From: Schmidtea nova | Lineage: Eukaryota | Direction of reading: 5' to 3' | DNA length: 64,000 nt | Assembly: GCA_044892505.1 (NCBI GenBank) | Contig: CM097882.1 | Span: forward strand, 477,214,001-477,278,000 | Translations under genes and position numbers: made by a program | Notes under the pieces: generated by a model | Databases searched by the model: none | Seen by the model: the letters and a program-made list of their open reading frames with translations, nothing else | What the model was told of the DNA's origin: nothing | Shown here: piece after piece, positions 1-23,100 of the stretch | Layout of the letters: each line of letters begins with the position of its first letter | How positions within the stretch are numbered: position 1 is the stretch's first letter

Positions 1-3000
1 CATTAGAATTAATTTAGAAAAAATTAAGAGAAAATTCTAGAACAATTTGTTTTATTGCACTACCGGAGATAGAGAAAATTTGATGGTATATATACCGCCA
101 TCAAAATGGCAGATTTCAGATTTTGTGGAAAAAATTTTTTTGTTTTGCTAGCTAAGAGAATTTGTGAGAAGTTTTCCGAAAATTTTTATTGCTAACCTAA
201 TTAAAGAGAATTTGTACCATTTGCCTCAGAAATTTAGAATTGAAGATATTGTGGAAAGGATTCAATTTATTGGAAAATCGGAATTGGTCAAAATTTAGTT
301 CCCGGAGCACGAACCTTTTTAGTAGAAAACAAAATTTCTTCCTGGAGTTTGAAATGTTAGGTTTATTTTATTTTTGTTTTATTTTAAACTGATTCGAGGG
401 GTATGGGATCGTCGGTAATCATGCCTGTCGATCATCCCATTCCTCACGTTCGTATTATTTAAAAATGTATTATTTTTGTTATTTTATATAATGCAATTAT
501 TTTATTTTGATATTATTAAATATTAAAAATTTATTTTATTCAGTTTGATTTTGAAAATATTTTTGTTTATTATACTCACAAGTTCCCAAAACACCTAAAA
601 TTACTATGAGAATTGTCGAAATAAACTTATGAAATTAAATAATTTTTTTTATCTCCCATATCTTCTGACGATCCGTCCAGCCTTGGTTGTGCGGATCTGT
701 TAGTAGCCTGGGTGGATCGTTGTCTGATTGGTAATCGGCCAGCCCATATTTCCACTTTAAGGTGAGGCTCATACATCCAAATTCTCGTCATCCCAACTGG
801 GGAATCGTGGTTTGGCCAAGAGCAAGGTTTTGTTATACTAATGATTTTTATTATAATAGAGTATCATATTTTTATTATCTACATAAGCAATTTCGTAACA
901 CAACATAAAATCTTCTAATTCACGTCTTGAAATCTAAAATAGGAAATATTATTGATTAAAAAAAAAAAAAAAAAAAAAAAATCGACTCGTACTCACCTTC
1001 ACCTTCGCACTCTCAACAACGATCATCTCATGAGAAAATGCAAGAAAAATGGATGCTAACGATGAAAAGAAAATTGTTCGAATTAATGCTCAAGTCTAGA
1101 ATGATGCTCACGAAACGAAATGAATTGTGAAACAAGTATTGATTTAGTCTGAATTTAAGACTCATTATGGTCTAAATAAGTTTTTCCTGTGAATCTTGTT
1201 TTTCGAGAGCCTGAAATTCCTAAGTGAAGTGTCCCGAAAAATTCGCGTGCACTTTGATTGGGAAATTCATGCTCAACAAAACCGAAATTTACTTCACTTG
1301 ATGTTAAAAATATTCGTCGAAAAAGGTGTAACTTATTTTATTTTATTTTTTATTTTTATTTAGTATATAAATCTCTTTAGATTAAATGCATATTTAGATC
1401 TCGAAATTCATGGATAAAATATTTTTATTATTATTTCATTTTGATCAAGAATAAAAATTTGCTTTTTATTATACTGCAAAAATTTTAAAATGAAAAAATT
1501 ATAAACCAAAAAATGTTCCTAATATTATTAATATAAAAAAGATCTTATCATTTCATAAAATTCCAGAGAATTTGCAAATCAAAAGTTATATTAAACCCCA
1601 TAAAAATTATAGATTGAAAGTTTATTGTTATAGTAAAAATTCTTATTATTTTATAAAAATCTGAATTTGAAATTTTATAGAAAATTTTTTGGTTAATATA
1701 TATTCTAAAATATAAAAGGTTAAAAACCTATCTTATAAAAAAATTAAAAATTTTATCATTAGTAAATTTTTCATGAAACTATAAATACAAAAAAAATTTC
1801 ATAAAAAGCATTATAAAAATTATTATTATTATTTTAATTTAAAATTATTATTATTATGTTAAAATTATTTTATATAGTTTATTTAAATTATAATATAACC
1901 CCCCCCACGATATCTTAAAAATATTAATACATCACTCATTGCAAGAAATCACACCCTTTTCACTCAATAGCATCACCCATACTAATATACAAGCAACATA
2001 CATATAAAATACAATATACACACATACACCGTATCGTTCAATAACATTCAACAATCACATGCATACAAGCAAACCATACAGAAAATCTACACCGTTAGGT
2101 TAGTTAGCATCATATATCCATAGCTCATTCAGGCACTCGCTCAATCACATCCACATCGTTTATTTCATCCAACCGACCAATGAACACACCAACACATGCA
2201 TTTATAACAATAGGAAGTCCACCACCGAACTATAAAAGAAAAAAAAACATAAACGTGATTCACCACAATAGGTATTTCCCACAAATCTATAACAAAATAT
2301 AGCAGCCTCATTCACCTTCAGATCATCACCTTAGAAATTACTTTCATTCATCTGTGAACATACCTCGCTGACAATATAACTTCCAATACCACTACCCAAC
2401 AGTTGACAATGATTTATATATACCCCACTTCATATTTTAAAAAATTTTATAATAATAAAAAGACATTCAAGACAAAAAATTTATTGATAATAAACATCAT
2501 TCACAACAGTTCCAGAAAACAGTCTGGTAGGGATTTCCCATAAGGAAGTTGGTTCCGTTGAGGAGTAAAACAACATCCAATTTGGGTACGATTTCTCGAA
2601 AATATCCAATCGTACTATACGTCTGGCAGATATGAGAACGAAACAAAAAAATTAATTCCACAGAGCAACTGCCGCTTGCGACGATTGATAGATTTTATTT
2701 TTGTGGTTCCTCATCGGAAAGCTGCTGGAGAATTTTTATTTAAGCCCTCGAATTTAAAGGGAAAAGATATTGGTCTATCATAGACTTGGCATTGAACGAC
2801 GAACGTGGTGAATCTAGTGGCCTCTGAATCAAGTGATAATAAAGTAAAAATATATTGATAAATCTAAATTACCATTTTCGACGATGATAAATTTTCCAAT
2901 TGAGTAGAATTTCATAATAGGAATTTGAGAGAAATTAAATAAATAAATGATAATTCAAATTGTTATCATTTACAATTGAGGGGAAATAAATTTTTCTTCT

Positions 3001-3801
3001 GGTTCAAACAAGAAGAATATTTCCGTTTGGTAAATTGCACCTAATTTTGTTCCAAATAAATTTAAAAATGCAAAAAATTTTTTAAATTAAATTCAAGAAT
3101 TAAATAATTTCAAAAGACCGAAATCTGATGGTTATAAATTATAAGCAAAAGTTTTACTAAATCAATTTCGTTACTAAGGCCTCAGCAAAATTTTAAAATC
3201 AAAATATTGAAATTTTAATAAATATTTTATTATAAATTTAAAGCAAGATAGACAATAGGATTTGAATATAAATAAAGTTTACATAAATTTTAAATATAAA
3301 AAACATAACAATTTAAGGAAATTGCGATAATGATAAAAATTTGGGTCTAAATAAGAGCAATTTGTATATTCCCAAATATATACATTTTCTGAAGGAATAA
3401 TTGATCACCTATTTGAGTTGCGATAATATTTTCGAATGCATGTTGCGAATAGAGTAAAAGCGCTCGAATAAATTAATTGATTAATAAATAAATCACAGTT
3501 TGGCGAAAATACTCAAATAAAAATCTCGTAATAAACCTATACAGTGATAGAACAGATAAATTAAGGGGGACAAAAATGGGCAAGAAACCTTCTATCGGTA
3601 GCCCTTGGACCCAGGAGATATTCGGTCAATCATAGTTTCGTATTGACGACGCTCACTGATTGCGAATACCCACCCACTTGTTACAGTACCAACGTTACAT
3701 AGTGACGGGTAACAAGGTGGTAATTTCAATGTTTTATGTGTTGAGTTGTTGATGAGAGCCATAGAAACGTCAAGGTCATATTGACGGTCAACAACCCACC
3801 A
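1..3801 (+). repeat. 5' LTR (truncated by window start)
   Basis: Matches 20188-23987; in spot checks the only difference was a C8 vs C7 run (~1889 vs ~22086). Ends in CA and is followed by the PBS. Confidence 0.9.
3619..3801 (+). other. Structured U5-terminal element (three stem-loops), also at the 3' LTR end (~23805-23987) and in diverged copies
   Basis: Pairings: TATTCG..CAATCA/TGATTG-CGAATA with inner TCGT/ACGA hairpin; CCACTTGTTAC/GTAACAAGGTGG; GTTGTTGA/TCAACAAC enclosing CGTCAA/TTGACG. Confidence 0.6.
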
Positions 3802-3811
3802 TATAAAAATT

Positions 3812-3829
3812 TGGGGGCTCAGCCGGGAT
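3812..3829 (+). promoter_or_regulatory. Primer-binding site complementary to tRNA-Pro 3' end
   Basis: TGGGGGCTCAGCCGGGAT vs canonical Pro PBS TGGGGGCTCGTCCGGGAT (16/18), 10 nt after the LTR end; absent after the 3' LTR. Confidence 0.88.
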
Positions 3830-4105
3830 TATCTCGATTTAGCTAGTTTGTTTTGTGTGAAGCGAAAATCAATGGAAATGACTTTACGTGGAAGTTTGTT
3901 AATGTTTTTGCGTTGGAAAGATAAAAGTATTTTAAAGAAAAACGAGATTTGGTGAAAGTTTTATAAAAATCGATAATCATTTGAGTATTTTCGACGAAAA
4001 TGGAAAAAATTTATGCTTGATTATTAATATTATTTATATTACTATTATTATTTTTACGACAATAGTTATTTTATACCATTATAAGTATTATTATTAGGAT
4101 TATAA

Positions 4106-5924: not shown

Positions 5925-6570
5925 TAAAAATATAAAAATATAAAAAATATAAAAATACAAAAATATATGTATAAAAATGGCTGAATATTCTGTTAGTTAA
6001 AAATATAAAAATATAAAAATATAAAAATACAAAAATATATGTATAAAAATGGCTGAATATTCTGTTAGTTAAAAATATAAAAATATAAAAATACAAAAAT
6101 ATATGTATAAAAATGGCTGAATATTCTGTTAGTTAAAAATATAAAAATATAAAAATATAAAAATACAAAAATATATGTATAAAAATGGCTGAATATTCTG
6201 TTAGTTAAAAATATAAAAATATAAAAATATAAAAATACAAAAATATATGTATAAAAATGGCTGAATATTCTGTTAGTTAAAAATATAAAAATATAAAAAT
6301 ATAAAAATACAAAAATATATGTATAAAAATGGCTGAATATTCTGTTAGTTAAAAATATAAAAATATAAAAATATAAAAATACAAAAATATATGTATAAAA
6401 ATGGCTGAATATTCTGTTAGTTAAAAATATAAAAATATAAAAATATAAAAATACAAAAATATATGTATAAAAATGGCTGAATATTCTGTTAGTTAAAAAT
6501 ATAAAAATATAAAAATATAAAAATACAAAAATATATGTATAAAAATGGCTGAATATTCTGTTAGTAGTAG
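5925..6570. repeat. Tandem array, 9 units of ~72 bp (one 64 bp) inside the element leader
   Basis: Nine copies of ATGTATAAAAATGGCTGAATATTCTGTTAG separated by a variable number of 8-bp AAAAATAT modules. Confidence 0.95.
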
Positions 6571-6713
6571 TTTTGAAAAAATACAAAATATATAAAAAAT
6601 TATAAAAATTCGTGTACATAGCTGTTGAAGTTTTTATTATTTATTTTTCGTTCAAATCATAATGAATGGTTAATTCAAAAAGTTATAAACACCAGTCATC
6701 ATGAATATTTTAG

Positions 6714-7196
6714 ATGGAATCGATGGAGCATATTTTACTACGAATCGAGTTGTTTTTCGATTTTAAAAATGACCCATTGCAGGTGTTGAGCGAGAAACTC
6801 GAACGAGTAAATGGAATAAAAGATGAATTATTGTTGAATCCTAGACCACAACCCGAGAACCTAATAGTGATTGCAGGAATTGTGGGAACAACAAACGATA
6901 TTTCGTTGGAAATGATTTATGAATTACAACGATTGCGACTGAATAATCCGAATTTTAATCTAAAAATACAAGAATGGATTGGTAAAATCGATAAAATCAT
7001 GGACAAGCTAGAGAGATCGATAAATCAACAGAGCGATTCGTTCGAAAGATGTTATATTTGTCGACAAAAAGAAGCGAACATTTTATTCATGCCATGTGGG
7101 CATTTGTGCTATTGCCAGCCGTGCTCTAGAAAAATAAAGAGATGCGTAATCTGCAAACAGACAATTGATGACAAAATCATCGTATTTTGTTCGTAA
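6714..7196 (+). CDS. RING-finger (C3HC4, IAP/Mind-bomb-type) putative E3 ubiquitin ligase, 160 aa, no BIR domain
   Basis: C-terminal CYIC-x-ANILFMPCGHLCYCQPCSRKIKRCVICKQTI; acceptor TTTTAG directly before the ATG. Confidence 0.85.
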   Translation: MESMEHILLRIELFFDFKNDPLQVLSEKLERVNGIKDELLLNPRPQPENLIVIAGIVGTTNDISLEMIYELQRLRLNNPNFNLKIQEWIGKIDKIMDKLERSINQQSDSFERCYICRQKEANILFMPCGHLCYCQPCSRKIKRCVICKQTIDDKIIVFCS

Positions 7197-8240
7197 AGAA
7201 TGTCGTTCGAAATAAACGTTTTGGTCGTATTTAACTTCGTCGATCATCCAGTACTCCAAACCGTTAAAAAAAAAAAAAAAAAAAATTAAATAAACACAGA
7301 ACACTAGGTAATTAATAACTGAGAATCGTGAAAAAACATAACAAGTAACGGCTAATGCCGAAAAATCAAACATTAGGAAAATGGGAATTTGTGACAAAGT
7401 TACTTTTCTTTTCTTTTTGAATTTTCTTTATTATTATTATAAATCCTCCTCATAATTATTATTTTGAACCGAATTTCATTACTATAATCTTCCTTATTAC
7501 CATTATTATATTGATTATCATTATTATACTGATCATTATATATATAAATATGTATGTATTAGGACGAGCCATAAGTAGCGTTATAGAAGTTGATTTTATA
7601 AGGGAATCTTCCGAAATACAGTGAGAAATGAGTGTCTGAGTAGAAACGAGAAAATAGTCCACAAATTCATAACTGAGCTATCAAAAGATAGTACGCCAAG
7701 TTTTAACAGAGCTATCAAAAGATAGTACGTCAATATTTTTGTTGTTAAAAATTAGCAGACAACAAACGGGGAAAAACTTGATCACCTTGAGGAAAGAGAG
7801 TAGAATAGGATATCCATCGCATATGTTGGCGAAATTTCGTTTGTGACTGATCATCACAAATTGCGAAACGAGTTAACGCGATTATTTTACGATTTTGAAT
7901 TAGGTGAAAGGGCTTAACCCGTAATGTTCGTCTTATACACCAGTTTGCCAAGGCATGATTGGTACACTGAGGTAGAGGACAGTAACATTAATAAAGAGAA
8001 AGATGCTGCAGATTTTAGAAAGTCGAAAGAGTAAAAAGTGAATTTCGATGATTATAGTAGATGATAGTATAATAAGAAAAGATTCTACCATGGTAGTTAG
8101 GGAATTGATTCGTAATTGAGAAGTAGTAGAACAATTTGAGAAAAACAGTCAGCAACAGCGAATTTAGTTAAAAATTTGAGAATAGGGAAACGAGTGATTG
8201 AATAGCATAAAGAGAATAATCGAAGACGGCCGAGAAAAAA

Positions 8241-8788
8241 TTGAGAAACTTTGAGAGTTCATGTATGTGAGAGACTTTGAGAGTCCAGATAATTGAGAAA
8301 CTTTGAGAGTTCATGTATGTGAGAGACTTTGAGAGTCCAGATAATTGAGAAACTTTGAGAGTTCATGTATGTGAGAGACTTTGAGAGTCCAGATAATTGA
8401 GAAACTTTGAGAGTTCATGTATGTGAGAGACTTTGAGAGTCCAGATAATTGAGAGACTTTGAGAGTCCAGATAATTGAGAGACTTTGAGAGTCCAGATAA
8501 TTGAGAGACTTTGAGAGTCCAGATAATTGAGAGACTTTGAGAGTCCAGGTAATTTAGAGACTTTGAGAGTCCAGATAATTGAGCGCTCTGGGAGAGACTT
8601 TGAGAGTCCAGATAATTGAGAGACTTTGAGAGTCCAGATGATTGAGAAACTTTGAGAGTTCATGTATGAGAGACTTTGAGAGTCCAGATAATTGAGAAAC
8701 TTTGAGAGTTCATGTATGAGAGACTTTGAGAGTCCAGATAATTGAGAAACTTTGAGAGTTCATGTATGTGAGAGACTTTGAGAGTCCA
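8241..8788. repeat. Tandem array of ~21 x 26-bp monomers partly organised as 52-bp dimers
   Basis: Alternating TGAGAAACTTTGAGAGTTCATGTATG / TGAGAGACTTTGAGAGTCCAGATAAT units. Confidence 0.95.
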
Positions 8789-9551
8789 ATGTTTGTGGAT
8801 ATTGTTGAGAAATTTAGGAAAAACGTTTGAGAAATAGAATTAAATAAAACTGCAGTTATAATTTTGTTATGATAGAGAGAAACGTTGAACGCGAATACTT
8901 AAGGTGTAGTAAGATAAACCGTTAATAAGAGCAGATAAAAGACATCGAGAAATACTTAGGAAATAAAATAATGGCCATGAATAGATAACGAACAAGACAT
9001 TTTTCCTCGAATGCCGAGATGAGTATGATCATACTGTTATTATAGTATTAGTAATGTTATTATTATTGTTACTATTATTATTATTATTATCAGGGTATAG
9101 ATAATTGATACGACCATATAGATAATTATTACGAGATATAGATAATTTAAAATCTGAGCTCAGAGTAAAAGGGGGGTAAATGGCGTCGATGAAGAAGCGA
9201 TATTTTTATTTAGATTGTCCAACAGATCAAAGCCAAGCCAAGAGATAGTCAAATCAATCAGTTATTGAAGAGGTATATATAGAAGAAAAGAAGAAAAAGA
9301 AGTCTAATTGAAAAGGAAAGAAGTAAAAGAAAATAAATCAAAGAAGATCCAATTGAAGATAAAAGAAAGATCAGCAATCGATATTAAACACAAATTGACA
9401 ATATTACCAAACCAACCAAGTTCGTAAAGTCGAAAGATAAAGAGTCAAATCTATTAAAAACGACGAAAGGAAATTAAAAAGAAATAAAGCTGATAAATAA
9501 AGAAGTAAAATCCACAATATTAGAAAGTTTGTAGCCGATTTTCAGAAAGAA

Positions 9552-12500
9552 ATGGAGGAGAATCAGAAAGTTACCAGTGCAAACTCAGAAGATAATTTAT
9601 TAAAAGAAGAGCAGAAAATAACCAGTTCAAATGTAGAAGATAATTTACAGGAAGAAGAAAAAGAAGTAATAACAATGAAAATGCAACTACAACAGAATAT
9701 CGAAGGAAAAGTAAATGAAATGATAACCGAATTATCAGACGTTGAAATTGAAAGAAAGGGAAATGTATATGAATTTTCAGTAAAAGATATGGAGGGAGAA
9801 GAAAAGAAGAAGTTTGTGGAGAAATATAACCGAAAAAGAAGAGAAAGAAGAAGCAATGATGATACATGTAGCATGGACGAGAAATGGGATGAATCTACGA
9901 CAATCAAATTAGAAGAAGTGGCACAAAGATTGTTAACAATTACCATGGAAGAAATGACGAAAATGGATCAAAAATCAGAAGAAAAAATAAAATCAGCAAA
10001 ACTCGAAAGATCAAGACAAACGGAAACGTCAAAGACCGAACGATTAATCAGTAACCTAATCAAGAATGCAGGAAATCAATGCGAAACAACAACTGAATTA
10101 CTAAAATGGGTTATAAAAAATAGTGCAATTATATCAAACATGAGATTGATAGTGAAAGAAATCGAGAAATGCAGACGTTTATGCCCTTGGTATTCAACAC
10201 AATTTGATGACATCATGAGAAAATGGAAACAACTAGAACAAACAAACGATGATCCACAAATGTGCAGATTGAAAATTCAATTTCCGAATCTAGAAGAAAT
10301 AAAGATGAATGTATCATTAACAACAAAGATCAAAGAGATAAAAGAGAGATTACCATTTAACTTACCATTTCACTTGAAATATGATGGAGAATCGCTGGAT
10401 GATGATATAGAAATCGGTGTAACCCCGATACAAATCAAAACAAGTAATAAATTAACTGTTGATAAAATTGCAGGAAGCGAGTTGACCAGAAAAGCGAGAG
10501 GTGAAGATAATCCCGAAATAACGATAATTGCCATGATGAAAACTCCAGCTGGACCAACACTTACAATTAACATCGAAGTTAATGGTGTAAAAGTAGACGC
10601 GATGATAGATACTGGCGCAAATATATCGGCAATAGATATCGATATGATACCAGAAATGTTACGGCTATGCATCGAGAAAACATCAGTAGACGTAATAACA
10701 TGCAGCAAAGAATCTGTCAATATCGTTGGAAAAATATGGACGGACATCGAATACAGAAAAGTAAAAATATCAACTTATTTGACAGTCATAAAACAACTGG
10801 GTGCCTCATGCATTATTGGAACAGACTTAATACCAAAACTGTTAAAAGGATCTGTAATCGATTTGAATACGATGAAGTTAAAACACCTAATTGAAGAGAA
10901 TGGCACAAGAGAAACAATGATAGAACAATCAAATCCAGAAACAACCAGAAAAGGACAAGTATATATGTTTCGAGAGAATAAAAATGACGATTGGCTACAT
11001 CGTATATTAACTGCGAGCAGAAAAGTAAATCAGCCGACAACAATATCTGAACAACCTAAGATAGTTGACGATGTAAAAATGGAGCACCGCAAAAAGATGG
11101 AATTGATCATTGAGATTACCAAAGAAATTATGCCAGAATGGTCACAAAGTAAAAATCTATTTGAAATATTGGGAGGAGTAAGCTTAATGGTTGAGGAATA
11201 TGCCAAAGGAAATGAAACGACAGAAGCGATGAATACCATAAAAGAAAGATTACCAATATTATTTACAATTGCCAGTTTTAAAGATGAGATACCGTTATAT
11301 CACGCAATAAAAAGTGGGAATGAACAGAGAATGTTTGAAATCATAAAACTCATGGAAAAGTGCAAGCAACATACCAACACGAAAAACTGGAAAGATCAAA
11401 CACCCTTGATGGTAGCAATTGAAAAAGGAGGATCCAAGAAACTCATAGCAGAACTGATGAGAACCGGATCAAGTTTTAAAGAAAGAGATGATAAAAATGA
11501 AACGGTGTTATCTTATGCAGTGCAAGCAAATAACCATCAAATAATCAAATATATTATGTCAAATGCTACAGAAGAAGATATTGAAGTGCTCAGTTCAGAT
11601 CCAAATCCATTAGTAAATGCAGTGAACAAAGATGCCGACGAAACAACAGCAAAAATGATTAAATGGTTACATCCAGTTACGCACGAAGGAGTGATAAATG
11701 TCAATGACAGATTTGAAGACGGTGAAAATATGATAATGAAAAGAGCCATGAAAAGAAAATGGAAAATGTGTAAAACGATTAAAGCATTGCTGCAAAGACC
11801 TGATTTCAGGTTTACGAACAACAAAAAAGAAAAAGAAAGAATTGGAGCTAAAAGACATGAATTATATCAGCAAGTTATCATATGGAAAGAAAATATAAAA
11901 GAAAGCAGAATTCACCGAAGCTGGAACAACGCCAAAGATGAAATAACCAAGAGAGCAAATATAAAAGCCGAAGCAGACGAAATAGCTAAAAGATATGAAG
12001 AAATAATAAAATTAATAAATGTCGAGGACGACATTTTAAACAGAACCGAGGGTGGTTCTAATGATCACAATGAGTCTGACGATGAAGGTGAAGAGAATAA
12101 CAACAACAAAACAAAGAAAGATGACAATGAGAGTATCAACAGAAACAATGACAAAGACGAGAAAGATGATGGAAAAAGCAATAACGACGAAATTGGGAAC
12201 AAAAGTGATGAACCCAAGCAAGAAACTTCAAACTATGAAAAACGAACAGCATGTCTACATAAAACTCGAATAAAAGACATAATATTACTGATATTGATGC
12301 TGTCAGCATTGAAAGGAACGGAAGCTGATGACAAGAGAAAACCAGTACAAGTATTAACACAAGGAGCAGATAATGAAGAAGCATGTTGGAGTAGCATCAA
12401 CTTGCAAAGTAAAGGAGATAACCCAGTCAAATGTCAACGAGCAGAAGGAGGAGAAATCCGAATAAATGGATTAAAACGAGAAACAAAATATAAAATCTGT

Positions 12501-12662
12501 GTTTACAAAAAGAAAGCAGCACAAGGATTGTTTAGAACACTCGTACGCCAGATAGTAGCACATAATGGTTCAAAAGTCACCCAAGAAGACATAAAAGTCA
12601 TATTAACCGACGAACTAGATGAGAACATCAGAGTGTCGTCGAAACGCAAGCTGCCGGAATAA
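9552..12662 (+). CDS. 1036-aa polyprotein: helical N-terminus, ubiquitin-like domain, retropepsin-type aspartic protease, ~5 ankyrin repeats, acidic linker, internal signal-like segment, FN3-like domain
   Basis: Protease VNGVKVDAMIDTGANISAI...IIGTDL (DTG at 10608). Ankyrin TPLMVAI/TVLSYAV/NPLVNAV (aa ~578-752). Ubl-like FHLKYDGESLDDD (aa ~238-303). IILLILMLSALKGTEA followed by INGLKRETKYKICVY. Confidence 0.85.
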   Translation: MEENQKVTSANSEDNLLKEEQKITSSNVEDNLQEEEKEVITMKMQLQQNIEGKVNEMITELSDVEIERKGNVYEFSVKDMEGEEKKKFVEKYNRKRRERRSNDDTCSMDEKWDESTTIKLEEVAQRLLTITMEEMTKMDQKSEEKIKSAKLERSRQTETSKTERLISNLIKNAGNQCETTTELLKWVIKNSAIISNMRLIVKEIEKCRRLCPWYSTQFDDIMRKWKQLEQTNDDPQMCRLKIQFPNLEEIKMNVSLTTKIKEIKERLPFNLPFHLKYDGESLDDDIEIGVTPIQIKTSNKLTVDKIAGSELTRKARGEDNPEITIIAMMKTPAGPTLTINIEVNGVKVDAMIDTGANISAIDIDMIPEMLRLCIEKTSVDVITCSKESVNIVGKIWTDIEYRKVKISTYLTVIKQLGASCIIGTDLIPKLLKGSVIDLNTMKLKHLIEENGTRETMIEQSNPETTRKGQVYMFRENKNDDWLHRILTASRKVNQPTTISEQPKIVDDVKMEHRKKMELIIEITKEIMPEWSQSKNLFEILGGVSLMVEEYAKGNETTEAMNTIKERLPILFTIASFKDEIPLYHAIKSGNEQRMFEIIKLMEKCKQHTNTKNWKDQTPLMVAIEKGGSKKLIAELMRTGSSFKERDDKNETVLSYAVQANNHQIIKYIMSNATEEDIEVLSSDPNPLVNAVNKDADETTAKMIKWLHPVTHEGVINVNDRFEDGENMIMKRAMKRKWKMCKTIKALLQRPDFRFTNNKKEKERIGAKRHELYQQVIIWKENIKESRIHRSWNNAKDEITKRANIKAEADEIAKRYEEIIKLINVEDDILNRTEGGSNDHNESDDEGEENNNNKTKKDDNESINRNNDKDEKDDGKSNNDEIGNKSDEPKQETSNYEKRTACLHKTRIKDIILLILMLSALKGTEADDKRKPVQVLTQGADNEEACWSSINLQSKGDNPVKCQRAEGGEIRINGLKRETKYKICVYKKKAAQGLFRTLVRQIVAHNGSKVTQEDIKVILTDELDENIRVSSKRKLPE

Positions 12663-12856
12663 CAAGGAAAAGGATCTGTGTAAATATTGTATAAAAGTAT
12701 ATTGTAATAAAAGTAGTATGAAAATTGTGTAAATACTGTACAAATAATATGTTAACGAAAAAAATGGTTTAAAACGTAAAATTAATTGATGATGAAAAAA
12801 CAACAACTATACCCTGTCATAGAAATATTATTCCTTTCTAGAAGCTCTAATCAACA

Positions 12857-14305
12857 ATGAAAAAACTAGCCAGTATAATTGTCCTATGCTCCGTATTCAA
12901 CACCTTATCAAGAAACAATGCAGAAGAATACTTTTTCAGCACAACAACAGCTAATCAGATTGCCTATAAAACAATTGAAAAGAGACCTAAAAACTCCTAT
13001 GAAAACATTCAATTACATGTCCTATTGACAAGCTTATCCGGAACATTGCTATATTTAACAAACGACGATGGTAATCAATTAATTTTAACCCTCTATAATG
13101 AAATCAGTGAAAGAATGAAGATAGAATACAAAGAGCTTGATTATGTTGTAGAACTTTGCGAGTTATGCCAAGATCAAAGCACCAGCGAATGTGAATTGTA
13201 CAAATATCGATCAATCAAAGTAAATATCAAGATTGCAGATAAACTCGCTGTCAAATGTAACCAAGGCAAGGAAACATTCTTTGAGTATGGAGAAAAACAA
13301 ATTACTAAAACTGATTACCCAACGATAAAGGAAATTGACAAAACAACAACACTTATCTACGTCATGAACACACCTCAACATGACAAAGGATACCCCAATC
13401 CTGAACAATTACAAGGTTGTGTGTATAAAGTGGAATACAATAATAAAACGCTGAAAATGGAAAGGAGCAGTGAAGAGATAAAAAACGAATGTCGAAAAAT
13501 ATGTACAGACAATATCTGTAATGAAGGTAAATGTTATGAAACATTTTCCGAGAAACCTATCTGTAATTGTAAATTTACCCCAAAAAACGGTCGGTACTGT
13601 AACACCAGCAGCATTAGCCGGAAATACCGAAGAATCAACGCACAAAAGCAAACACTTTGGATAGATTATGTAAAGTTATTAATAAATAACAACTCGAAGG
13701 AGCTAATTTTTGAAATGGAGAACAAAGAATCCAGATTGTACATACGGAGAGAAAGAGCATCAATTACAGTCAAATATGAAAACAAGAAAGACTGGTATAT
13801 AGAAGGCTTTTTGGCCAACCAGGTTGATGAAGTCAAACTGATAATAATAGGCATGAAGTTCACGGAGAAAGGAATCCATTTCCATATTATCAATCAGAAA
13901 ACCGAAATCTCAAGAGAAATGCCTGTTTTAGAAAAGATGAATGAAATACCTTGGAAACTTATAACGATTGCAGATAGTGTAGAAATGATATATAAGATAC
14001 ACCATTCACGGTACGATTGGTGCAGTACTGACATGGACGAAATTAGGAATAATGACAGAACATGTGCGGAAATTGAAGTAGTTCCTCCAACGAACGAAGC
14101 GAGAAGCCTAACAATGAAAAAGTTACCAATGGAGACAAATTATAAGATCAGTCGTCAAACATTCGTCAGTACATTAGTAATAGAAATTATAATCCTAGTC
14201 ACCGGAACTATTGGAATTTTTGTCCTCGTATACAAGAGAGCAAAACGGAAACTCGAACAACGAGTAAATATGATTTTGGAACAAGTTCATATGACCCCAG
14301 TATAA
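12857..14305 (+). CDS. 482-aa type I membrane protein: signal peptide, LamG-like, EGF, second LamG-like, TM, tail ending MTPV (neurexin/Caspr-like layout)
   Basis: N-terminal hydrophobic MKKLASIIVLCSVF; LTSLSGTLLYL and LQGCVYKVEYN LamG-type motifs; EGF CTDNICNEGKCYETFSEKPICNCKFTPKNGRYC; TM TLVIEIIILVTGTIGIFVLVY followed by KRAKRK. Confidence 0.75.
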   Translation: MKKLASIIVLCSVFNTLSRNNAEEYFFSTTTANQIAYKTIEKRPKNSYENIQLHVLLTSLSGTLLYLTNDDGNQLILTLYNEISERMKIEYKELDYVVELCELCQDQSTSECELYKYRSIKVNIKIADKLAVKCNQGKETFFEYGEKQITKTDYPTIKEIDKTTTLIYVMNTPQHDKGYPNPEQLQGCVYKVEYNNKTLKMERSSEEIKNECRKICTDNICNEGKCYETFSEKPICNCKFTPKNGRYCNTSSISRKYRRINAQKQTLWIDYVKLLINNNSKELIFEMENKESRLYIRRERASITVKYENKKDWYIEGFLANQVDEVKLIIIGMKFTEKGIHFHIINQKTEISREMPVLEKMNEIPWKLITIADSVEMIYKIHHSRYDWCSTDMDEIRNNDRTCAEIEVVPPTNEARSLTMKKLPMETNYKISRQTFVSTLVIEIIILVTGTIGIFVLVYKRAKRKLEQRVNMILEQVHMTPV

Positions 14306-14454
14306 ATAAAGAGGAACAGTGTATATAGTGTATAAAATTATATTGTATTATAAAAGTAGAATATATTTGTATAATAAAAATTTAAAAATCCAAAAAAATG
14401 AATACCTCAAAACTGGGAAAAACAAATGATAATATTGTGTAATTATTGACAGAA

Positions 14455-14904
14455 ATGAATTCGAACAACGAGAATCAAAGTTATCAAACATCAGTTCCAA
14501 CGTTCAATGAACCATCAAATCAAACTCAGTTTCCAGAAGATACCAATATACGAGAAAGAGAAAGGTCACTGCAAACCCCAGTAATCGAAAATGAAACGCA
14601 AAATCCAACAATTGACGATAGAAACCTGATATACCAAGTCGAAATTCCACTATTTGATGAAACCATGAACCCAATTCAAACGACATTCGTATTAAATCAA
14701 CAACCAACAAATAGCCAGACTCAATCAATATCAGCTCCGATGGTTTATCAGCAGACAATGACGCAAGAGTTATCATGGAAAACGCAATGTGAATTATTAA
14801 GCAGGATGTTGAATCAAGCCTATGCACAATGGAAAAATGAACAAGCTTTGTTAACAGAAAGTGTAAACAGAAATTTATTATATCTCCGTTATGCCGATCA
14901 ATAA
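14455..14904 (+). CDS. 149-aa Q/N/T/P-rich protein with C-terminal helix, unknown function
   Basis: Open frame; first ATG at 14455 lies 2 nt after a CAG acceptor (the track's TTG start at 14446 lies upstream of the acceptor). Confidence 0.7.
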   Translation: MNSNNENQSYQTSVPTFNEPSNQTQFPEDTNIRERERSLQTPVIENETQNPTIDDRNLIYQVEIPLFDETMNPIQTTFVLNQQPTNSQTQSISAPMVYQQTMTQELSWKTQCELLSRMLNQAYAQWKNEQALLTESVNRNLLYLRYADQ

Positions 14905-15038
14905 TCCAAATAAACAACTTTGTAAATAAAGTGTAAAAATTTTAATTTCAATCGATGTATACAAGTATTATTTAATAAGCATGAGCAACAAAAAATGTAT
15001 AAACAAAAGGAAATTACCCATGTTATTATTATTTCAGA

Positions 15039-16586
15039 ATGAATATACAACAATTGATAGACATCCTAGATCAGGAGATGGCAAAAAGACAAGAGCAATT
15101 AGATCAAATGAGAAGCTGTGAACAAAGAATGGAAGCCATCCAAGAGAACGTTAAAATGATTGAAAAACGAACCCAAGAGATCAACAAAATAAAAGAAGAA
15201 AACGAGGAACTGCGAAAGATAATAAACGACAAGGCGCATATCGAAGCTGAATTAGACAATTATAAACGAGAGTACCGAGAAATGGAGAGAAAACTCGAGC
15301 ACGAACAACGAAAGTCGGTACCGTTGAAAAATCAAGCGAGATTAAGAAAAGACGAGCTCGAAACCTATAAAAGAGATACCGAAACAAGGTATGACAACTC
15401 CATAAGATTCTATCAGCAGCAACTCGAAAGTGAAAGAAATAGATATGAAGCCATGAAAAAGAAATGGGAAAAGTGTCGAGATGAAGCATTTGCTTTGAGA
15501 GGACAACCTCAAAAGAAGCTTAAAGTCAGAACAAGAAACATTGAACCTGAAAGCGAACAAGAAAAGATCATTAGAAAAGTTAAAGCAGAGGCTAGGAAAT
15601 GGAAACAAGAACACCAAGATTTATTGGAAATGGCTCGACACAGGAAAATGCTACAGGAAGAATTACTAAGACGGAGAGACGTTCAAATCGAGGCTCTGAA
15701 AGAGGAATGTCATTGGTATGCAGACATACGTCATGAGGAAACGGAGAAACTCAGAAAAGAAATATTCCAGTTGAAAACGAGCGGACAGTTCAGAGTAAGA
15801 AGCATAAAGCATCAAATAAAGTGGCTAATAGAACAAGCCAGAACATGGAAAAAGACCTGGAAAAGAACTCGAGACGAACTACGAGAATTCCCAAAGAAGC
15901 TGATGTCAATAAATGAAGCAGAATTGTGGGAAAATGCAGAAAAGCAAGAGATAGAAAACAAAGAATTAAAACGACAAGTTCAATTAAAAACTGAATGGAA
16001 TCAAAGGAGAATGAAATTTACCAGGAATCAAGAAGCTCGTATCAAATATCTGGAATTTGAAAACAGGCAATATGATCAACAGAAAAATATGGACGATAGA
16101 AGTATTGAAGAATTGACAATCGAATTGACTATTGCAAACCGTGAAGTCAACGGATATCGAGGAACAAATACTCATAAAGATATTGTCATTCAACACCAGC
16201 GACGGCAGATAGAAGAAACAAAGGCCGAATGTGAGAAAGCGATCCAGCAATCGCAGTATGAGATTGAGATGGCAATCCAAAGTTTGGAAGAAAACCGCCA
16301 AAACTATGAAAGAGAGATTGAAAGGTTAAAATATATGGAAAATACGAGAGAGCTCGAGATAGAAAAGGAACAGCTGAGTGAAGAACTCGATTATATGACA
16401 TATTTGCTAGATGAAGAGATAGAAATCTCAAGAACCTTGCGAGAAAGAGTTCAGAGCCTACAAAATCAACCTCCAATCATTCTATGGCCACTATATCCAA
16501 CACCAATACAACCTGTACATTTGGAGCAAGAAAATCCTCAAATCGAAGATGAAGGGTTCGGAGAAATTGAAGAGACGTTTGTATAA
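15039..16586 (+). CDS. 515-aa long coiled-coil protein, Pro-rich C-terminus
   Basis: Long E/K/R/Q-rich heptad ORF; TTTCAG acceptor 1 nt before ATG. Confidence 0.8.
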   Translation: MNIQQLIDILDQEMAKRQEQLDQMRSCEQRMEAIQENVKMIEKRTQEINKIKEENEELRKIINDKAHIEAELDNYKREYREMERKLEHEQRKSVPLKNQARLRKDELETYKRDTETRYDNSIRFYQQQLESERNRYEAMKKKWEKCRDEAFALRGQPQKKLKVRTRNIEPESEQEKIIRKVKAEARKWKQEHQDLLEMARHRKMLQEELLRRRDVQIEALKEECHWYADIRHEETEKLRKEIFQLKTSGQFRVRSIKHQIKWLIEQARTWKKTWKRTRDELREFPKKLMSINEAELWENAEKQEIENKELKRQVQLKTEWNQRRMKFTRNQEARIKYLEFENRQYDQQKNMDDRSIEELTIELTIANREVNGYRGTNTHKDIVIQHQRRQIEETKAECEKAIQQSQYEIEMAIQSLEENRQNYEREIERLKYMENTRELEIEKEQLSEELDYMTYLLDEEIEISRTLRERVQSLQNQPPIILWPLYPTPIQPVHLEQENPQIEDEGFGEIEETFV

Positions 16587-16685
16587 ATAATAAAAGTGAA
16601 TGTAAAGTGTAAAAATAAATTGAAATGTAGTGTAAAAAGAAAACGTTGTAAACAAATGTAAAAAGAAAAAGTTGTAAAATATATC

Positions 16686-16716
<31 letters not shown>

Positions 16717-16868
16717 ATAAAAAGCAGAAAAAATAAAAAATCCAATAAAAATCAGAAAAAATGAAAAACAAATAAAAATTAGGTGATAAAAATGATAAAA
16801 ATGATAAAAACAAAAACAAAATTTAATAAAACTGTAGAAAAGAGTTATGAAAATTCAAATTATAGAGA

Positions 16869-17444
16869 ATGAGACTATTGAAGCAAAGATCAGAACCAGA
16901 ACAACAAACGATATCAAAAGAAAGATTCAAAAAACGGAAAAGAGCAACAGAACAATATTATCAAGACCAAATAGAGCAATTGAAGGAAGTAGTGAGCAAA
17001 GATAGAAAATATATCGCGCAAATGGAGCAAGAGTGCGAGACGATGGAAATAATCAAGCGCGAAAATTATCTATTTCGCCAACAAAATGGTCTTACCCAAA
17101 AATATTGCTACAGACAGAAGCAAGAGATTGACAGACTCAAAAGGGAAATAAGCAGTGAACAGAACACTGATAATAAAAGGAGGATTAAGATCGAGTCATT
17201 ACAACGATCATTGAAGAACAAACAGAAAAAGATTATAAAAAGAGAGAAACAGATAATAAAGTTGAAAAGTGAAATCATAGAAGCAAAATTCGATACGTTC
17301 AAAGCAAAGAAAGTTGTAGAAATTAAAACGGCAGAAAACTACGTCCTCAAAGAGAAAAGGCGAAAAGAAGCAGACGAGATTGCAAAAATGGGTAACTGGA
17401 AGCCAGAAAGTCCGTTAAAGCTAAATGAAGAGACGAAAGAATAA
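16869..17444 (+). CDS. 191-aa basic coiled-coil protein
   Basis: K/R/E/Q-rich ORF preceded by TATAG acceptor; AATAAA overlaps the stop. Confidence 0.75.
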   Translation: MRLLKQRSEPEQQTISKERFKKRKRATEQYYQDQIEQLKEVVSKDRKYIAQMEQECETMEIIKRENYLFRQQNGLTQKYCYRQKQEIDRLKREISSEQNTDNKRRIKIESLQRSLKNKQKKIIKREKQIIKLKSEIIEAKFDTFKAKKVVEIKTAENYVLKEKRRKEADEIAKMGNWKPESPLKLNEETKE

Positions 17445-17539
17445 AATATATCTAAACTCATGTAAATATCCCTGTAAAAATATCAAAGAGAAAATTTGAC
17501 AAATCATTAAACAAATTTGAATCTATAAATCTATAGAAA

Positions 17540-18364
17540 ATGAGCAATCTAATGAGGATCACAACAACCATCATGATATTTATGATTACAAACTGCCGAA
17601 GCGAAGAAGCATTGAGTCAATGTCAAGCAAGCCATCCATTTAGAAGATCCGATAGCATTTGTGCAAGCTATCAAGAAATGTGTATCACCAGAAATGAGGA
17701 GTGTCAACAGATCCAACTGCAATGTCAACAATGTCCAAAATCCAGAGAAGATTCAATCACTATTCTTAAACAGCTAAAAAACGAAACCCAACAATTAATC
17801 CAACTACAAATCTCCTTAACCCAAAGGAACAATCTTCAACTAAAGAAACAGCTCGAAAATCAATCATCTTTCAAACAGTTAACAACCGAACTAAAGAAAT
17901 TGAGCAAGTTAATAGAAAAATCTTTAAATAATAAAGATGAAGTTAATGAGGAACGATCAAGTTTTACAGAAGAGTTAAATCAAAAACTGAAAAGTCAACT
18001 TCATCAGACCGAGAGAATCATAAAACAATTGATATTACCCGAAAAGCAAAAGGAGATTATCCCTAAACAAGGATCAACCAACGAAGACGTCAGAGACCGA
18101 GAAGCAGCCATCACAGTCGTCCTACAAGGCATCAGTCTTTTCGCGGTCATAATGATCCTTAGCATTGTTGCATCAATCGGATTAGAAAAAATGAAATTAG
18201 AGAAAGCAAAAATCCAGTTGAATACAATCAAAAGAATCACCCATGAAGACAACAACCCGTCAGAAAATTTTCTAAGATCAATATTCGAAGATCCAGTTCC
18301 AGAACAGCCTAATCCTGAGACATCTACAACCTCGGTGCAGATGAATTACTTCTATAAACAATAA
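17540..18364 (+). CDS. 274-aa type I membrane protein: signal peptide, Cys-rich head, coiled-coil stalk, TM, tail
   Basis: MRITTTIMIFMITNC signal; six Cys in the head after the signal; Leu heptads; TM AITVVLQGISLFAVIMILSIVASIGL. Confidence 0.8.
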   Translation: MSNLMRITTTIMIFMITNCRSEEALSQCQASHPFRRSDSICASYQEMCITRNEECQQIQLQCQQCPKSREDSITILKQLKNETQQLIQLQISLTQRNNLQLKKQLENQSSFKQLTTELKKLSKLIEKSLNNKDEVNEERSSFTEELNQKLKSQLHQTERIIKQLILPEKQKEIIPKQGSTNEDVRDREAAITVVLQGISLFAVIMILSIVASIGLEKMKLEKAKIQLNTIKRITHEDNNPSENFLRSIFEDPVPEQPNPETSTTSVQMNYFYKQ

Positions 18365-18566
18365 TACGATTCTATTCCCTTTTGACAATTCATGTATTTT
18401 CTTCCATTCATTTAACCTATCTATCTATTTGTATTCTCATCTTTAACAATATTTCATCATCATTTAAATCATAACCCTGTGTAAAAATCGTAACACCCTT
18501 GTAAATAGCAAAAATTGTTTATCGTCATTATTCAATTTCTTTCTATTAGAAACACAAAAATCAACA

Positions 18567-19361
18567 ATGAAATCGTACCGAGAAGTTTTTCTAATCGCCA
18601 TGATCACAACAATTTATTGTCATCTCGAAGAAACCCAGAAATCAAGCCAATTAAACCCAAATCAACCAGATAATAAAGAACCATTTGAAATCTCTAACAA
18701 CAAACAACTATCCGAAAAGATTGAGCAAGCCAAAATCGAAATTCAAAATACCCTTTTCGATCAAAATGATGAAATTTCAGGTCTAAAAAGAATAGCAAGG
18801 ATAATATTAGCCGATTTAGCGATCAGAGATACATTCGAGGATATCTTTGATAATGATCGAGAAACCCGTGACGTAATAAAAAGTCTCACCAAAGAACTTA
18901 AAACGAATATAGGCAAGTTAATCGATCAGCTAACGATAAATTCATCAAGTCCGAAATGTCTGAAACAAATCCAGAAAATTCATCATAACCTGTCCCAGCA
19001 GATTTCCGAAGTAGGAAACCAAACGGCACAACAACTAAGAAAGGCTTATTTCGAAAGCCTGACATTTAAGAATAAAATCCACAATCACATAAACGAGATA
19101 TCGAAACCGGATAACAATCAAGGCAGAGACAAGTGCAGAGCACCCCTCCTATCATCCAAACGAATTCTCGATATCTGCCTGATCATCCTTAACTTTTTCC
19201 TAATAATCGGAATTTGTGGTATAATACGGTTAGGCTTGACCGCCACAAGAACGATGAACAACATGACCTCCAAACAATCCCGAAGAGAAGATGACAAGAA
19301 ACAGTTGATCGATACCGAGTCATTCAAACTATTCCAGTCGAAGATCCAACCAATTCAATAA
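18567..19361 (+). CDS. 264-aa type I membrane protein: signal peptide, helical ectodomain, TM, tail
   Basis: VFLIAMITTIYC signal; TM ILDICLIILNFFLIIGICGIIRLGL; size and topology parallel the preceding ORF. Confidence 0.8.
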   Translation: MKSYREVFLIAMITTIYCHLEETQKSSQLNPNQPDNKEPFEISNNKQLSEKIEQAKIEIQNTLFDQNDEISGLKRIARIILADLAIRDTFEDIFDNDRETRDVIKSLTKELKTNIGKLIDQLTINSSSPKCLKQIQKIHHNLSQQISEVGNQTAQQLRKAYFESLTFKNKIHNHINEISKPDNNQGRDKCRAPLLSSKRILDICLIILNFFLIIGICGIIRLGLTATRTMNNMTSKQSRREDDKKQLIDTESFKLFQSKIQPIQ

Positions 19362-20187
19362 TAAATTTGATAATTCAACAAACTTAATAAAACTTTTATC
19401 CGAGTCGTTGTAGACTCATATTGAACTTTGATTAGCCGCTGTAGGCACATATATTACATTTAATTTTGCTTGCGAGTCGATGCAGACTCATATTAATGTA
19501 TACGTATTAACTTTTTATTAATTTTTATCACTTTTTATTTTTTATTGTCGCGAACGGCATGATCACGACCAAGTAGCTCGTGTATAATGTACAACCTTTT
19601 GACCTTTGATTAGTCTTGGTTCTTAACCCCTCTGAGAAATTGCGGGACGCAATTTTTGCGGGCCCCCGAGTATTTTATGTTGGGCCAAAACCCAATTTGT
19701 TTTAATAAAACGATAACCCCATAGGTAGAGAACGCGCAAGATTCCATTTTTAACCTTAGCTTCCATTGAAAATCCAACAATTAAGTGGAAAACACCAAAA
19801 GGTGAAGATGAATCAAAACACAGCAACCGGTAGAATGCGCGCTAACTGCGAATTTATAAATATTTTCACTGAAATCTCGAGAAAAATTAAAAGCAGAATG
19901 TTTGGAAGCTAGAATAGGCAAAAAACCCATGGAAAGTGCCCATAAAGAACAGAATTTTGTCATAAAATCTTCAGTACAGAAAAATTAACAAAATTTTAGA
20001 AGAAAATTGTGAATTTATCACAAAATTTCACATTTAACAATAGAAAGAATTAATATGGATCGAATATCATAAATTAAATCAAATCGAACAAATTTCGATT
20101 CAAACATGAGAATTTTGAATTAAAATAAATTATTTATAGTTTATAAAAAATTATTATACAAAAATATGGAATTAATTTTCGGAAAAT

Positions 20188-23100
20188 CATTAGAATTAAT
20201 TTAGAAAAAATTAAGAGAAAATTCTAGAACAATTTGTTTTATTGCACTACCGGAGATAGAGAAAATTTGATGGTATATATACCGCCATCAAAATGGCAGA
20301 TTTCAGATTTTGTGGAAAAAATTTTTTTGTTTTGCTAGCTAAGAGAATTTGTGAGAAGTTTTCCGAAAATTTTTATTGCTAACCTAATTAAAGAGAATTT
20401 GTACCATTTGCCTCAGAAATTTAGAATTGAAGATATTGTGGAAAGGATTCAATTTATTGGAAAATCGGAATTGGTCAAAATTTAGTTCCCGGAGCACGAA
20501 CCTTTTTAGTAGAAAACAAAATTTCTTCCTGGAGTTTGAAATGTTAGGTTTATTTTATTTTTGTTTTATTTTAAACTGATTCGAGGGGTATGGGATCGTC
20601 GGTAATCATGCCTGTCGATCATCCCATTCCTCACGTTCGTATTATTTAAAAATGTATTATTTTTGTTATTTTATATAATGCAATTATTTTATTTTGATAT
20701 TATTAAATATTAAAAATTTATTTTATTCAGTTTGATTTTGAAAATATTTTTGTTTATTATACTCACAAGTTCCCAAAACACCTAAAATTACTATGAGAAT
20801 TGTCGAAATAAACTTATGAAATTAAATAATTTTTTTTATCTCCCATATCTTCTGACGATCCGTCCAGCCTTGGTTGTGCGGATCTGTTAGTAGCCTGGGT
20901 GGATCGTTGTCTGATTGGTAATCGGCCAGCCCATATTTCCACTTTAAGGTGAGGCTCATACATCCAAATTCTCGTCATCCCAACTGGGGAATCGTGGTTT
21001 GGCCAAGAGCAAGGTTTTGTTATACTAATGATTTTTATTATAATAGAGTATCATATTTTTATTATCTACATAAGCAATTTCGTAACACAACATAAAATCT
21101 TCTAATTCACGTCTTGAAATCTAAAATAGGAAATATTATTGATTAAAAAAAAAAAAAAAAAAAAAAAATCGACTCGTACTCACCTTCACCTTCGCACTCT
21201 CAACAACGATCATCTCATGAGAAAATGCAAGAAAAATGGATGCTAACGATGAAAAGAAAATTGTTCGAATTAATGCTCAAGTCTAGAATGATGCTCACGA
21301 AACGAAATGAATTGTGAAACAAGTATTGATTTAGTCTGAATTTAAGACTCATTATGGTCTAAATAAGTTTTTCCTGTGAATCTTGTTTTTCGAGAGCCTG
21401 AAATTCCTAAGTGAAGTGTCCCGAAAAATTCGCGTGCACTTTGATTGGGAAATTCATGCTCAACAAAACCGAAATTTACTTCACTTGATGTTAAAAATAT
21501 TCGTCGAAAAAGGTGTAACTTATTTTATTTTATTTTTTATTTTTATTTAGTATATAAATCTCTTTAGATTAAATGCATATTTAGATCTCGAAATTCATGG
21601 ATAAAATATTTTTATTATTATTTCATTTTGATCAAGAATAAAAATTTGCTTTTTATTATACTGCAAAAATTTTAAAATGAAAAAATTATAAACCAAAAAA
21701 TGTTCCTAATATTATTAATATAAAAAAGATCTTATCATTTCATAAAATTCCAGAGAATTTGCAAATCAAAAGTTATATTAAACCCCATAAAAATTATAGA
21801 TTGAAAGTTTATTGTTATAGTAAAAATTCTTATTATTTTATAAAAATCTGAATTTGAAATTTTATAGAAAATTTTTTGGTTAATATATATTCTAAAATAT
21901 AAAAGGTTAAAAACCTATCTTATAAAAAAATTAAAAATTTTATCATTAGTAAATTTTTCATGAAACTATAAATACAAAAAAAATTTCATAAAAAGCATTA
22001 TAAAAATTATTATTATTATTTTAATTTAAAATTATTATTATTATGTTAAAATTATTTTATATAGTTTATTTAAATTATAATATAACCCCCCCACGATATC
22101 TTAAAAATATTAATACATCACTCATTGCAAGAAATCACACCCTTTTCACTCAATAGCATCACCCATACTAATATACAAGCAACATACATATAAAATACAA
22201 TATACACACATACACCGTATCGTTCAATAACATTCAACAATCACATGCATACAAGCAAACCATACAGAAAATCTACACCGTTAGGTTAGTTAGCATCATA
22301 TATCCATAGCTCATTCAGGCACTCGCTCAATCACATCCACATCGTTTATTTCATCCAACCGACCAATGAACACACCAACACATGCATTTATAACAATAGG
22401 AAGTCCACCACCGAACTATAAAAGAAAAAAAAACATAAACGTGATTCACCACAATAGGTATTTCCCACAAATCTATAACAAAATATAGCAGCCTCATTCA
22501 CCTTCAGATCATCACCTTAGAAATTACTTTCATTCATCTGTGAACATACCTCGCTGACAATATAACTTCCAATACCACTACCCAACAGTTGACAATGATT
22601 TATATATACCCCACTTCATATTTTAAAAAATTTTATAATAATAAAAAGACATTCAAGACAAAAAATTTATTGATAATAAACATCATTCACAACAGTTCCA
22701 GAAAACAGTCTGGTAGGGATTTCCCATAAGGAAGTTGGTTCCGTTGAGGAGTAAAACAACATCCAATTTGGGTACGATTTCTCGAAAATATCCAATCGTA
22801 CTATACGTCTGGCAGATATGAGAACGAAACAAAAAAATTAATTCCACAGAGCAACTGCCGCTTGCGACGATTGATAGATTTTATTTTTGTGGTTCCTCAT
22901 CGGAAAGCTGCTGGAGAATTTTTATTTAAGCCCTCGAATTTAAAGGGAAAAGATATTGGTCTATCATAGACTTGGCATTGAACGACGAACGTGGTGAATC
23001 TAGTGGCCTCTGAATCAAGTGATAATAAAGTAAAAATATATTGATAAATCTAAATTACCATTTTCGACGATGATAAATTTTCCAATTGAGTAGAATTTCA

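Follow-up and report, generated by a model that had tools for sequence, protein, structure and literature searches.

The window considered here is a 64,000-nucleotide (nt) stretch of Schmidtea nova DNA (assembly GCA_044892505.1, contig CM097882.1, positions 477,214,001 to 477,278,000 of the forward strand), and the feature within it that concerns us is, by its sequence traits, a Burro-like long terminal repeat (LTR) retrotransposon of 24.5 kb, non-autonomous and likely helper-dependent. Its interior holds eight open reading frames (ORFs), all on the + strand, and a splice acceptor motif stands before each of them. The acceptors of ORF2 and of ORFs 4 to 8 are almost certainly real spliceosomal sites, and on balance the array is probably expressed by cis-splicing of one 5' leader to alternative last exons, which would yield single-gene mRNAs. 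Directly observed are the sites themselves, which three families share, the purifying selection that acts on the ORFs, and the deletions that end at the acceptors. The ORFs, with their acceptors and products in amino acids (aa), are:

6711..7196, + strand: ORF1 with its acceptor (AG 6712-6713), RING finger, 160 aa
9552..12662, + strand: ORF2, 1036 aa, fused polyprotein pieces (SUMO-like, aspartic protease, ankyrins)
12839..14305, + strand: ORF3 with its acceptor (AG 12840-12841), 482 aa, hydrophobic N- and C-terminal stretches, an optional cassette
14450..14904, + strand: ORF4 with its acceptor (AG 14451-14452), shortened in the window copy
15035..16586, + strand: ORF5 with its acceptor (AG 15036-15037), 515 aa, coiled coil
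16863..17444, + strand: ORF6 with its acceptor (AG 16864-16865), 191 aa
17534..18364, + strand: ORF7 with its acceptor (AG 17535-17536), 274 aa
18547..19361, + strand: ORF8 with its acceptor (AG 18548-18549), 264 aa

An earlier note on this DNA had described a YAG (Y, pyrimidine) followed by A immediately upstream of every start codon, and this observation holds throughout: all eight AG and ATG positions were recovered, at AG-to-ATG distances of 0, 6, 15, 2, 1, 3, 3 and 17 nt, with A as the first base after the AG in 8/8 cases, which may partly be due to the A-rich start context. In the comparison with shuffled spacers that the note had proposed (dinucleotide shuffles, 3000 per ORF), YAG followed by A within 20 nt of the ATG was present at 8/8 ORFs against 1.18 expected (product of the per-ORF chances 6e-8); for YAG alone 2.2 would be expected (2e-5). 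Sister copies of the element carry two extra ORFs between ORF4 and ORF5, referred to as ORF4b and ORF4c (L022:545-3355, present in 21/40 copies); they encode a RING-zfTRAF-MATH protein (467 aa) and a BIR-RING IAP-like protein (389 aa), and YAG followed by A stands before each. The window copy lacks both, together with the end of ORF4, which is thereby reduced to 149 aa from the 211 aa found elsewhere. Outside the window copy, YAG precedes 10 of 11 further ORFs: the 2/2 extra ORFs of the sister copies, 7/8 ORFs of F1, an autonomous relative elsewhere in the same genome (3.3 expected, P 0.008), and 1/1 in a third family. For the RING ORF, the motif is seen in all three families.

The evidence that these motifs are used comes from the genome itself. 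When a retroelement reverse-transcribes a spliced RNA, the resulting DNA copy lacks the intron, and on this rationale the genome (1.25 Gb) was searched for starts of ORF1, 4, 5, 6, 7 and 8 that are preceded by sequence other than their own acceptor, which gave 66 matches. Together with the skip before ORF2 described below, they comprise 12 distinct exact junction types, in which the missing piece begins with GT and ends exactly at the acceptor of ORF2, 4, 5, 6, 7 or 8. The exact deletions span 41 nt to ~7 kb. The donor sequence is GTA in 11 of 12 cases, and the frequency of GT among dinucleotides is 3.8%. Four deletions are long (~2.8, 4.1, 4-7 and 6-7.5 kb) and pass over other acceptors and AATAAA sites; nearer acceptors are thus skipped in cis, as in other multi-acceptor units, a feature that the alternative-acceptor model requires. 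Two features recur among the junctions:

9505..9545, + strand: 41-nt GT...AG piece ending at the ORF2 acceptor, absent from many copies
10761..10766, + strand: cryptic donor in the protease domain, joined to the ORF5 and ORF6 acceptors over several kb

The 41-nt skip before ORF2 is found in at least 150 genomic copies and in 9/20 fetched copies, and its joint occurs in 4/4 runs (X1-X4, of unrecorded kind, which cover ORFs and spacers alike and were used for joints only). Other joints in these runs, taken as a comparison, were not of the GT...AG type in 14 of the 15 shown (of 37) and in 15 of the 15 shown (of 45). At ORF4, one of three matches is a 123-nt GT...AG loss (equivalent to 14330-14452) in a copy with two LTRs, the remaining ones being a diverged relative and a chance match. 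The 40 matches at ORF5 fall into six junction types, with GT following every left end and all ending at the same AG; 21 were mapped on fetched DNA and the rest by 16 upstream letters, one of them by eye. Their donors lie at 14997, 14957, 14933 and 14922 (41, 81, 105 and 116 nt), inside ORF4b (~2.8 kb) and at 10761 in the protease; as genomic copies, cis junctions at ORF5 make up ~1% of copies. ORF6 gave a single match, a two-LTR copy joined from donor 10761. Nine of 11 matches at ORF7 are GT...AG losses, from donor 17462 or from one in ORF4b (4.1 kb); of the other two, one shows the native acceptor in diverged form, and in the second (L075) the DNA upstream is unmapped. At ORF8, one of ten matches is exact (donor 18335), nine lie within one base of exact (donor 18501), and so do two fetched copies joined from 18394. 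The genome-wide pattern for the ORF1 acceptor gave one match, a one-base indel, and no spliced copy; for ORF3, ORF4b and ORF4c, whose acceptors were examined in fetched copies only, junctions were seen in 0/13, 0/21 and 0/21.

All three junction copies that were inspected in full have both LTRs. When 60 stretches were scanned for deletions in general, tandem repeats made the result noisy; unique sequence held one GT...AG-compatible loss of 50 nt, which lies within ORF3 and away from any ORF start. Three junction lineages now have G as the base directly ahead of the joint; this restores an AG and may reflect selection or copy-choice between spliced and unspliced RNA. We infer that the exact deletions derive from reverse-transcribed spliced RNAs, so that the acceptors of ORF2 and ORFs 4 to 8 appear to work in cis, over long distances included. 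The earlier suggestion that all eight AGs are working 3' splice sites is therefore supported for these six, ORF1 and ORF3 having no direct support. The fossil donors are weak and cryptic, and the source RNAs ran through to the 3' LTR.

The ORFs behind the acceptors bear marks of function. Variants were counted in 60 stretches fetched from 40 copies, which were picked from the best protease matches and are hence young. Across all ten ORFs, variants common to at least three copies comprise 285 synonymous and 199 non-synonymous changes (omega ~0.17), private variants give an omega of 0.28, and every ORF is intact in the majority of its copies; omega was obtained by simple counting with transition bias ignored and is biased low. 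Judged by these counts, purifying selection acts on all ORFs, which are then presumably translated, so that those lying downstream must reach the ribosome by some route.

The most likely route is the following. Each ORF, with the acceptor before it and the poly(A) signal after it, would form a cassette that acts as an alternative last exon; one long RNA would be cut into single-gene messages, with a shared leader joined to any one cassette. The donor would lie in the LTR end or just 3' of the primer-binding site (PBS), and the AATAAA together with the UGUA-rich stretch past each stop would constitute a working 3' end. Weak acceptors and U1-bound weak donors may allow a share of the transcripts to stay whole and serve as genomic RNA, for whose packaging a helper element would be needed. 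Long-range use in cis is what the deletions record; leader, 3' ends and mRNAs are predicted from the layout. The sites in question at the 5' end are:

3812..3829, + strand: PBS, 18 nt identical across three families
3846..3851, + strand: candidate leader donor A/GTTTGT, just 3' of the PBS

The PBS is presumably tRNA-Pro-like. GTTTGT is found 3' of it in 19/19 PBS-holding copies (of 20 fetched), and two autonomous families have GTRAAT exactly 24 nt past the PBS; in the window family GTTTGT lies nearer the PBS, and most copies have no GT at the position aligned to GTRAAT. In foamy viruses, according to PMC3694450, the donor resides inside the LTR and U1 blocks polyadenylation.

Several observations weigh against the cis-spliced leader. 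The 5' partner of the acceptors is still a set of candidates only, and a leader-to-ORF junction was not found among the 66 matches for six acceptors. The same holds for the shared-donor candidates 3709, 3720, 3846 and 5190, none of which gave a junction; the patterns for ORF4, 5, 7 and 8 were blind to donor 3846, and the ORF1 pattern, able to see it, gave none. This absence is a weak counterpoint, because mRNAs with internal poly(A) ends or a donor ahead of the PBS escape copying by the LTR route, and missing leader-junction copies are expected under both this model and trans-splicing. The acceptor AG is kept no better than spacer sequence (16/563 versus 1015/33175 mismatches, 3.1%), a rate that is due to the 13/38 copies without the ORF8 AG; the ORFs of these copies are mostly open, as they are in the 10/20 copies that lack the ORF2 acceptor. 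The ORF6 AG is missing in two copies, and seven of ten acceptors show no AG mismatch. The stop-to-acceptor spacing of 92-279 nt suits flatworm operons equally well, and the direction of the 41-nt change before ORF2 is unrooted, the tree of the ORF2 5' region being poorly resolved. Separately, donor 5190 was discarded as a candidate, its only match being one point-mutant copy.

The 3' half of the cassette is marked by two signals. AATAAA occurs at the stops of 7/8 ORFs, as described earlier, at +15, +44, 0, +5, +3, -4, none and -1 nt, and it is found within 50 nt of 15/20 stops against 5.6 expected, some of the spacers being homologous and not all independent; its total in six spacers is not above chance (11 versus 10.5). 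The earlier proposal of a separate 3' end for each ORF draws its support from this position of AATAAA. UGUA is enriched in the spacers (28 versus 11.7, with 0/500 shuffles as high), and the top de novo 8-mer, TGTAAATA, lies within 50 nt of 10/20 stops against 0.29 expected. The first UGUA stands at +15 to +19 in 11/12 spacers between downstream ORFs and the second at +22 to +30, a layout that holds in the window family and in F1; the pair is absent past the last ORF and the RING ORF, and no UGUA occupies that position in six other regions. An example is:

12679..12695, + strand: UGUA pair at +17 and +26 after the ORF2 stop, with a like layout after ORF3 to ORF6

UGUA-N-AUA, the Pumilio-type consensus, accounts for 16/58 sites versus 5.5% in flanking DNA. 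The pair could be the downstream part of a poly(A) site, a weak shielding U1 site or a Pumilio site; the U1 option arises because fossils exist in which these sites are used as donors, as is seen for each of the four UGUA sites between ORF4 and ORF5. Planarian cleavage sites are placed 10-30 nt past AAUAAA, generally without UGUA, by PMC5068929, and a role of UGUA as a CFIm poly(A) element is accordingly disfavoured.

The earlier note had also considered that the array is resolved as an operon. In this case, the transcript would be cleaved and polyadenylated past each ORF, a host spliced leader (SL) would be trans-spliced to the next acceptor, and the cis junctions would be noise at unpaired acceptors. 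Work cited in PMC12582326 and PMC8629364 describes SL trans-splicing for Schmidtea. In Macrostomum, the lengths of operon spacers have their peak at about 100 bp (PMC8629364), and spacers of at most 300 bp serve as a working definition of operons (PMC12582326). The spacers of 95-282 nt first reported for the element were found in six of seven cases, the exception being the ORF1-ORF2 spacer of 2355 nt; six of seven spacers thus separate same-strand genes by no more than 300 bp with an acceptor before each. The AATAAA at the stops and a fossil record that shows weak cryptic donors only also agree with an operon, and Cer1 of Caenorhabditis elegans is reported to have an SL1-bearing mRNA (PMC3315495). 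The many cis junctions, some spanning several kb, speak against it; at operon-resolving SL sites in other flatworms, cis-splicing is reported to be strongly depleted (PMC12582326). Flatworm SLs are reported to end in AUG (PMC12582326), and a leader of this kind would be joined in an open reading frame to only 4/8 window ORFs. An SL-like 5' piece is absent from the 66 matches, of which one (L075) has unmapped upstream DNA, and a donor-like site lies past the PBS in two families. An SL-resolved operon is hence regarded as rather unlikely, and the evidence on trans-splicing versus a cis leader leans to cis. Yet more doubtful is the elaborate form of this idea, a retrotransposon running a ten-gene operon on the host SL machinery, in which the stop-anchored UGUA would switch between mRNA cutting and full-length genome.

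The UGUA pair permits another reading, in which the spacers are ordinary introns, with U/GUA sites 15-30 nt past the stops as donors, and splicing yields a compact RNA, either polycistronic or with exons skipped, whose end lies in the 3' LTR; downstream ORFs would then be read by reinitiation or leader splicing. The stop-anchored position of the first UGUA, the donor use of all four sites in the ORF4-5 spacer and the absence of UGUA from the features of planarian poly(A) sites (PMC5068929) all suit it. The donors are, however, scattered rather than fixed, AATAAA is enriched at the stops, and in the fossils stop-proximal sites are never joined to a distant acceptor, whereas ORF-internal donors are, which makes this account improbable. 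Similarly small chances are given to the last alternative, that each ORF has its own small promoter, or that the acceptors were left behind by gene capture or by an autonomous ancestor and are no longer needed: acceptor loss in successful subfamilies and A-runs past three stops that could be old poly(A) tails speak for it, and spacers of ~100 nt, recurrence of the layout in families with 26-55% identical proteins, the seven of ten acceptors without AG mismatch and purifying selection on the ORFs against it.

The A-runs (at least 20 nt, 70-105 nt past the stops of ORF1 at 7266-7285, ORF5 at 16688-16711 and ORF4b at L022 ~2040) may go back to the poly(A) tails of mRNAs captured long ago, or may be products of slippage. 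ORF3 is present in 13/40 fetched copies and missing in 27/40 (window region 12650-14312), its loss running between short repeats that stand where two of the spacers begin; homolog searches for ORF3 gave no match.

The element is delimited by two LTRs:

1..3801, + strand: 5' LTR, starting 509 nt before the window (-509), ~4.3 kb, TG...CA ends
19678..23987, + strand: 3' LTR, 99.93% identical to the 5' LTR

Its target duplication is an A-run in an A-rich target. Domain matches of the window proteins revealed no reverse transcriptase (RT), integrase or Gag in ORF2 or the rest of the element, and all scored copies (150/150) have frames of at most 1079 aa, i.e. no autonomous-length polyprotein. A protease-query search of the genome gave 6333 first-look candidates, relatives included; the family amounts to thousands of young copies. 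A search among longer proteins gave no match, and searches for the closest autonomous parent gave nothing or another family, the sister region being fragmentary. F1 encodes a 5488-aa polyprotein, to which ORF2 aligns in four separate blocks at 26-55% identity, and it has counterparts of ORF1, 4, 4b and 5 in conserved order. ORF2 thus appears to be a shrunken polyprotein and the family a non-autonomous derivative; the earlier view of all eight ORFs as cargo does not hold for ORF2, a deleted polyprotein with SUMO-like, protease and ankyrin parts. The Burro assignment rests on traits given in the published description (PMC6431247): the multi-kb LTRs, TG...CA ends and PBS are present, as are the SUMO-like, protease and ankyrin modules in the window copy, and MATH/TRAF and BIR only in sister copies; in place of the ~5000-aa Gag-Env-PR-RT-RH-IN polyprotein (PR, protease; RH, RNase H; IN, integrase) of autonomous members, ORF2 has 1036 aa.

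Some further features were seen in and around the element. Its long non-coding parts contain tandem arrays (5860-6600 and 8190-8790, with 72-nt and 26/52-nt units) of copy-variable length. The LTR part 22350-23350 has much lower cover than the remaining LTR in all four runs, and in other copies only the ends of the LTR and some blocks can be aligned; subfamilies appear to have swapped the interiors of their LTRs. A block near the LTR 3' end (3590-3625) is kept in three families with otherwise barely alignable LTRs and is a candidate promoter or start site. On the minus strand, a consensus donor within the LTR (989-999) lies 65 nt from an acceptor-like site (928-930), possibly belonging to an antisense spliced transcript. 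The autonomous relative has two ORFs within each LTR, with YAG directly before both (L013:4996-6258). Beyond the element, a diverged solo-LTR-like relative (27200-28915, 68-90% in blocks) follows at a distance of 3 kb, and an integrase fragment (48831-49712) and a CENP-B-type DNA-binding ORF (59767-60129) are unrelated mobile-element remnants.

Burro elements and their cargo are already known, including apoptosis and ubiquitin genes, of which one, B-IAP, reportedly has a protective effect on the stem cells of planarians (Lee 2026, via PMC13465017). As far as its description goes, PMC6431247 is silent on how accessory ORFs of Burro/GYPSM1 are expressed, and the literature searched held no account of the expression layout of Burro downstream ORFs, which Grohme 2018 and Lee 2026 may cover. 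The analysis adds the record of junctions for six acceptors, the finding that every ORF of a non-autonomous family is under selection, and the UGUA pair anchored to the stops. The intron-less copies further show that genome sequence by itself suffices to map splice sites in a retroelement of high copy number. That such elements gain and drop whole genes is explained by an array in which up to ten cassettes of this kind follow one another, and the array poses the question of how a 20-kb genomic RNA passes through ten processing units.

Among known systems, complex retroviruses and gypsy env use one major donor and several acceptors, their mRNAs ending together in the 3' LTR. The window element is similar to HIV-1, foamy viruses and gypsy env in its weak acceptors before accessory ORFs, the competition with genomic RNA and a possible U1 shielding of poly(A) signals; in contrast, it seems to have its own poly(A) signal per ORF, and a major donor only in the form of candidates. 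The adenovirus major late unit combines one leader with many acceptors and several poly(A) sites; it belongs to a DNA virus, whose RNA is never the genome, whereas the RNA of the element must also survive whole as genome. With the SL-resolved operons of nematodes and flatworms (PMC8629364, PMC12582326) the element shares short spacers and the succession of poly(A) signal and acceptor; an SL at the window acceptors is hypothetical, and Cer1 (PMC3315495) has one SL1 site and no array. Closest in build are the Burro/GYPSM1 elements of planarians as described in PMC6431247, with their multi-kb LTRs, internal tandem repeats and SUMO-like, protease and ankyrin domains, and with accessory RING, TRAF/MATH and BIR-RING ORFs that have likenesses in the sister copies; the window family differs from them in that it lacks Gag, Env, RT, RNase H and integrase and has its coding sequence divided among as many as ten ORFs, each preceded by an acceptor.

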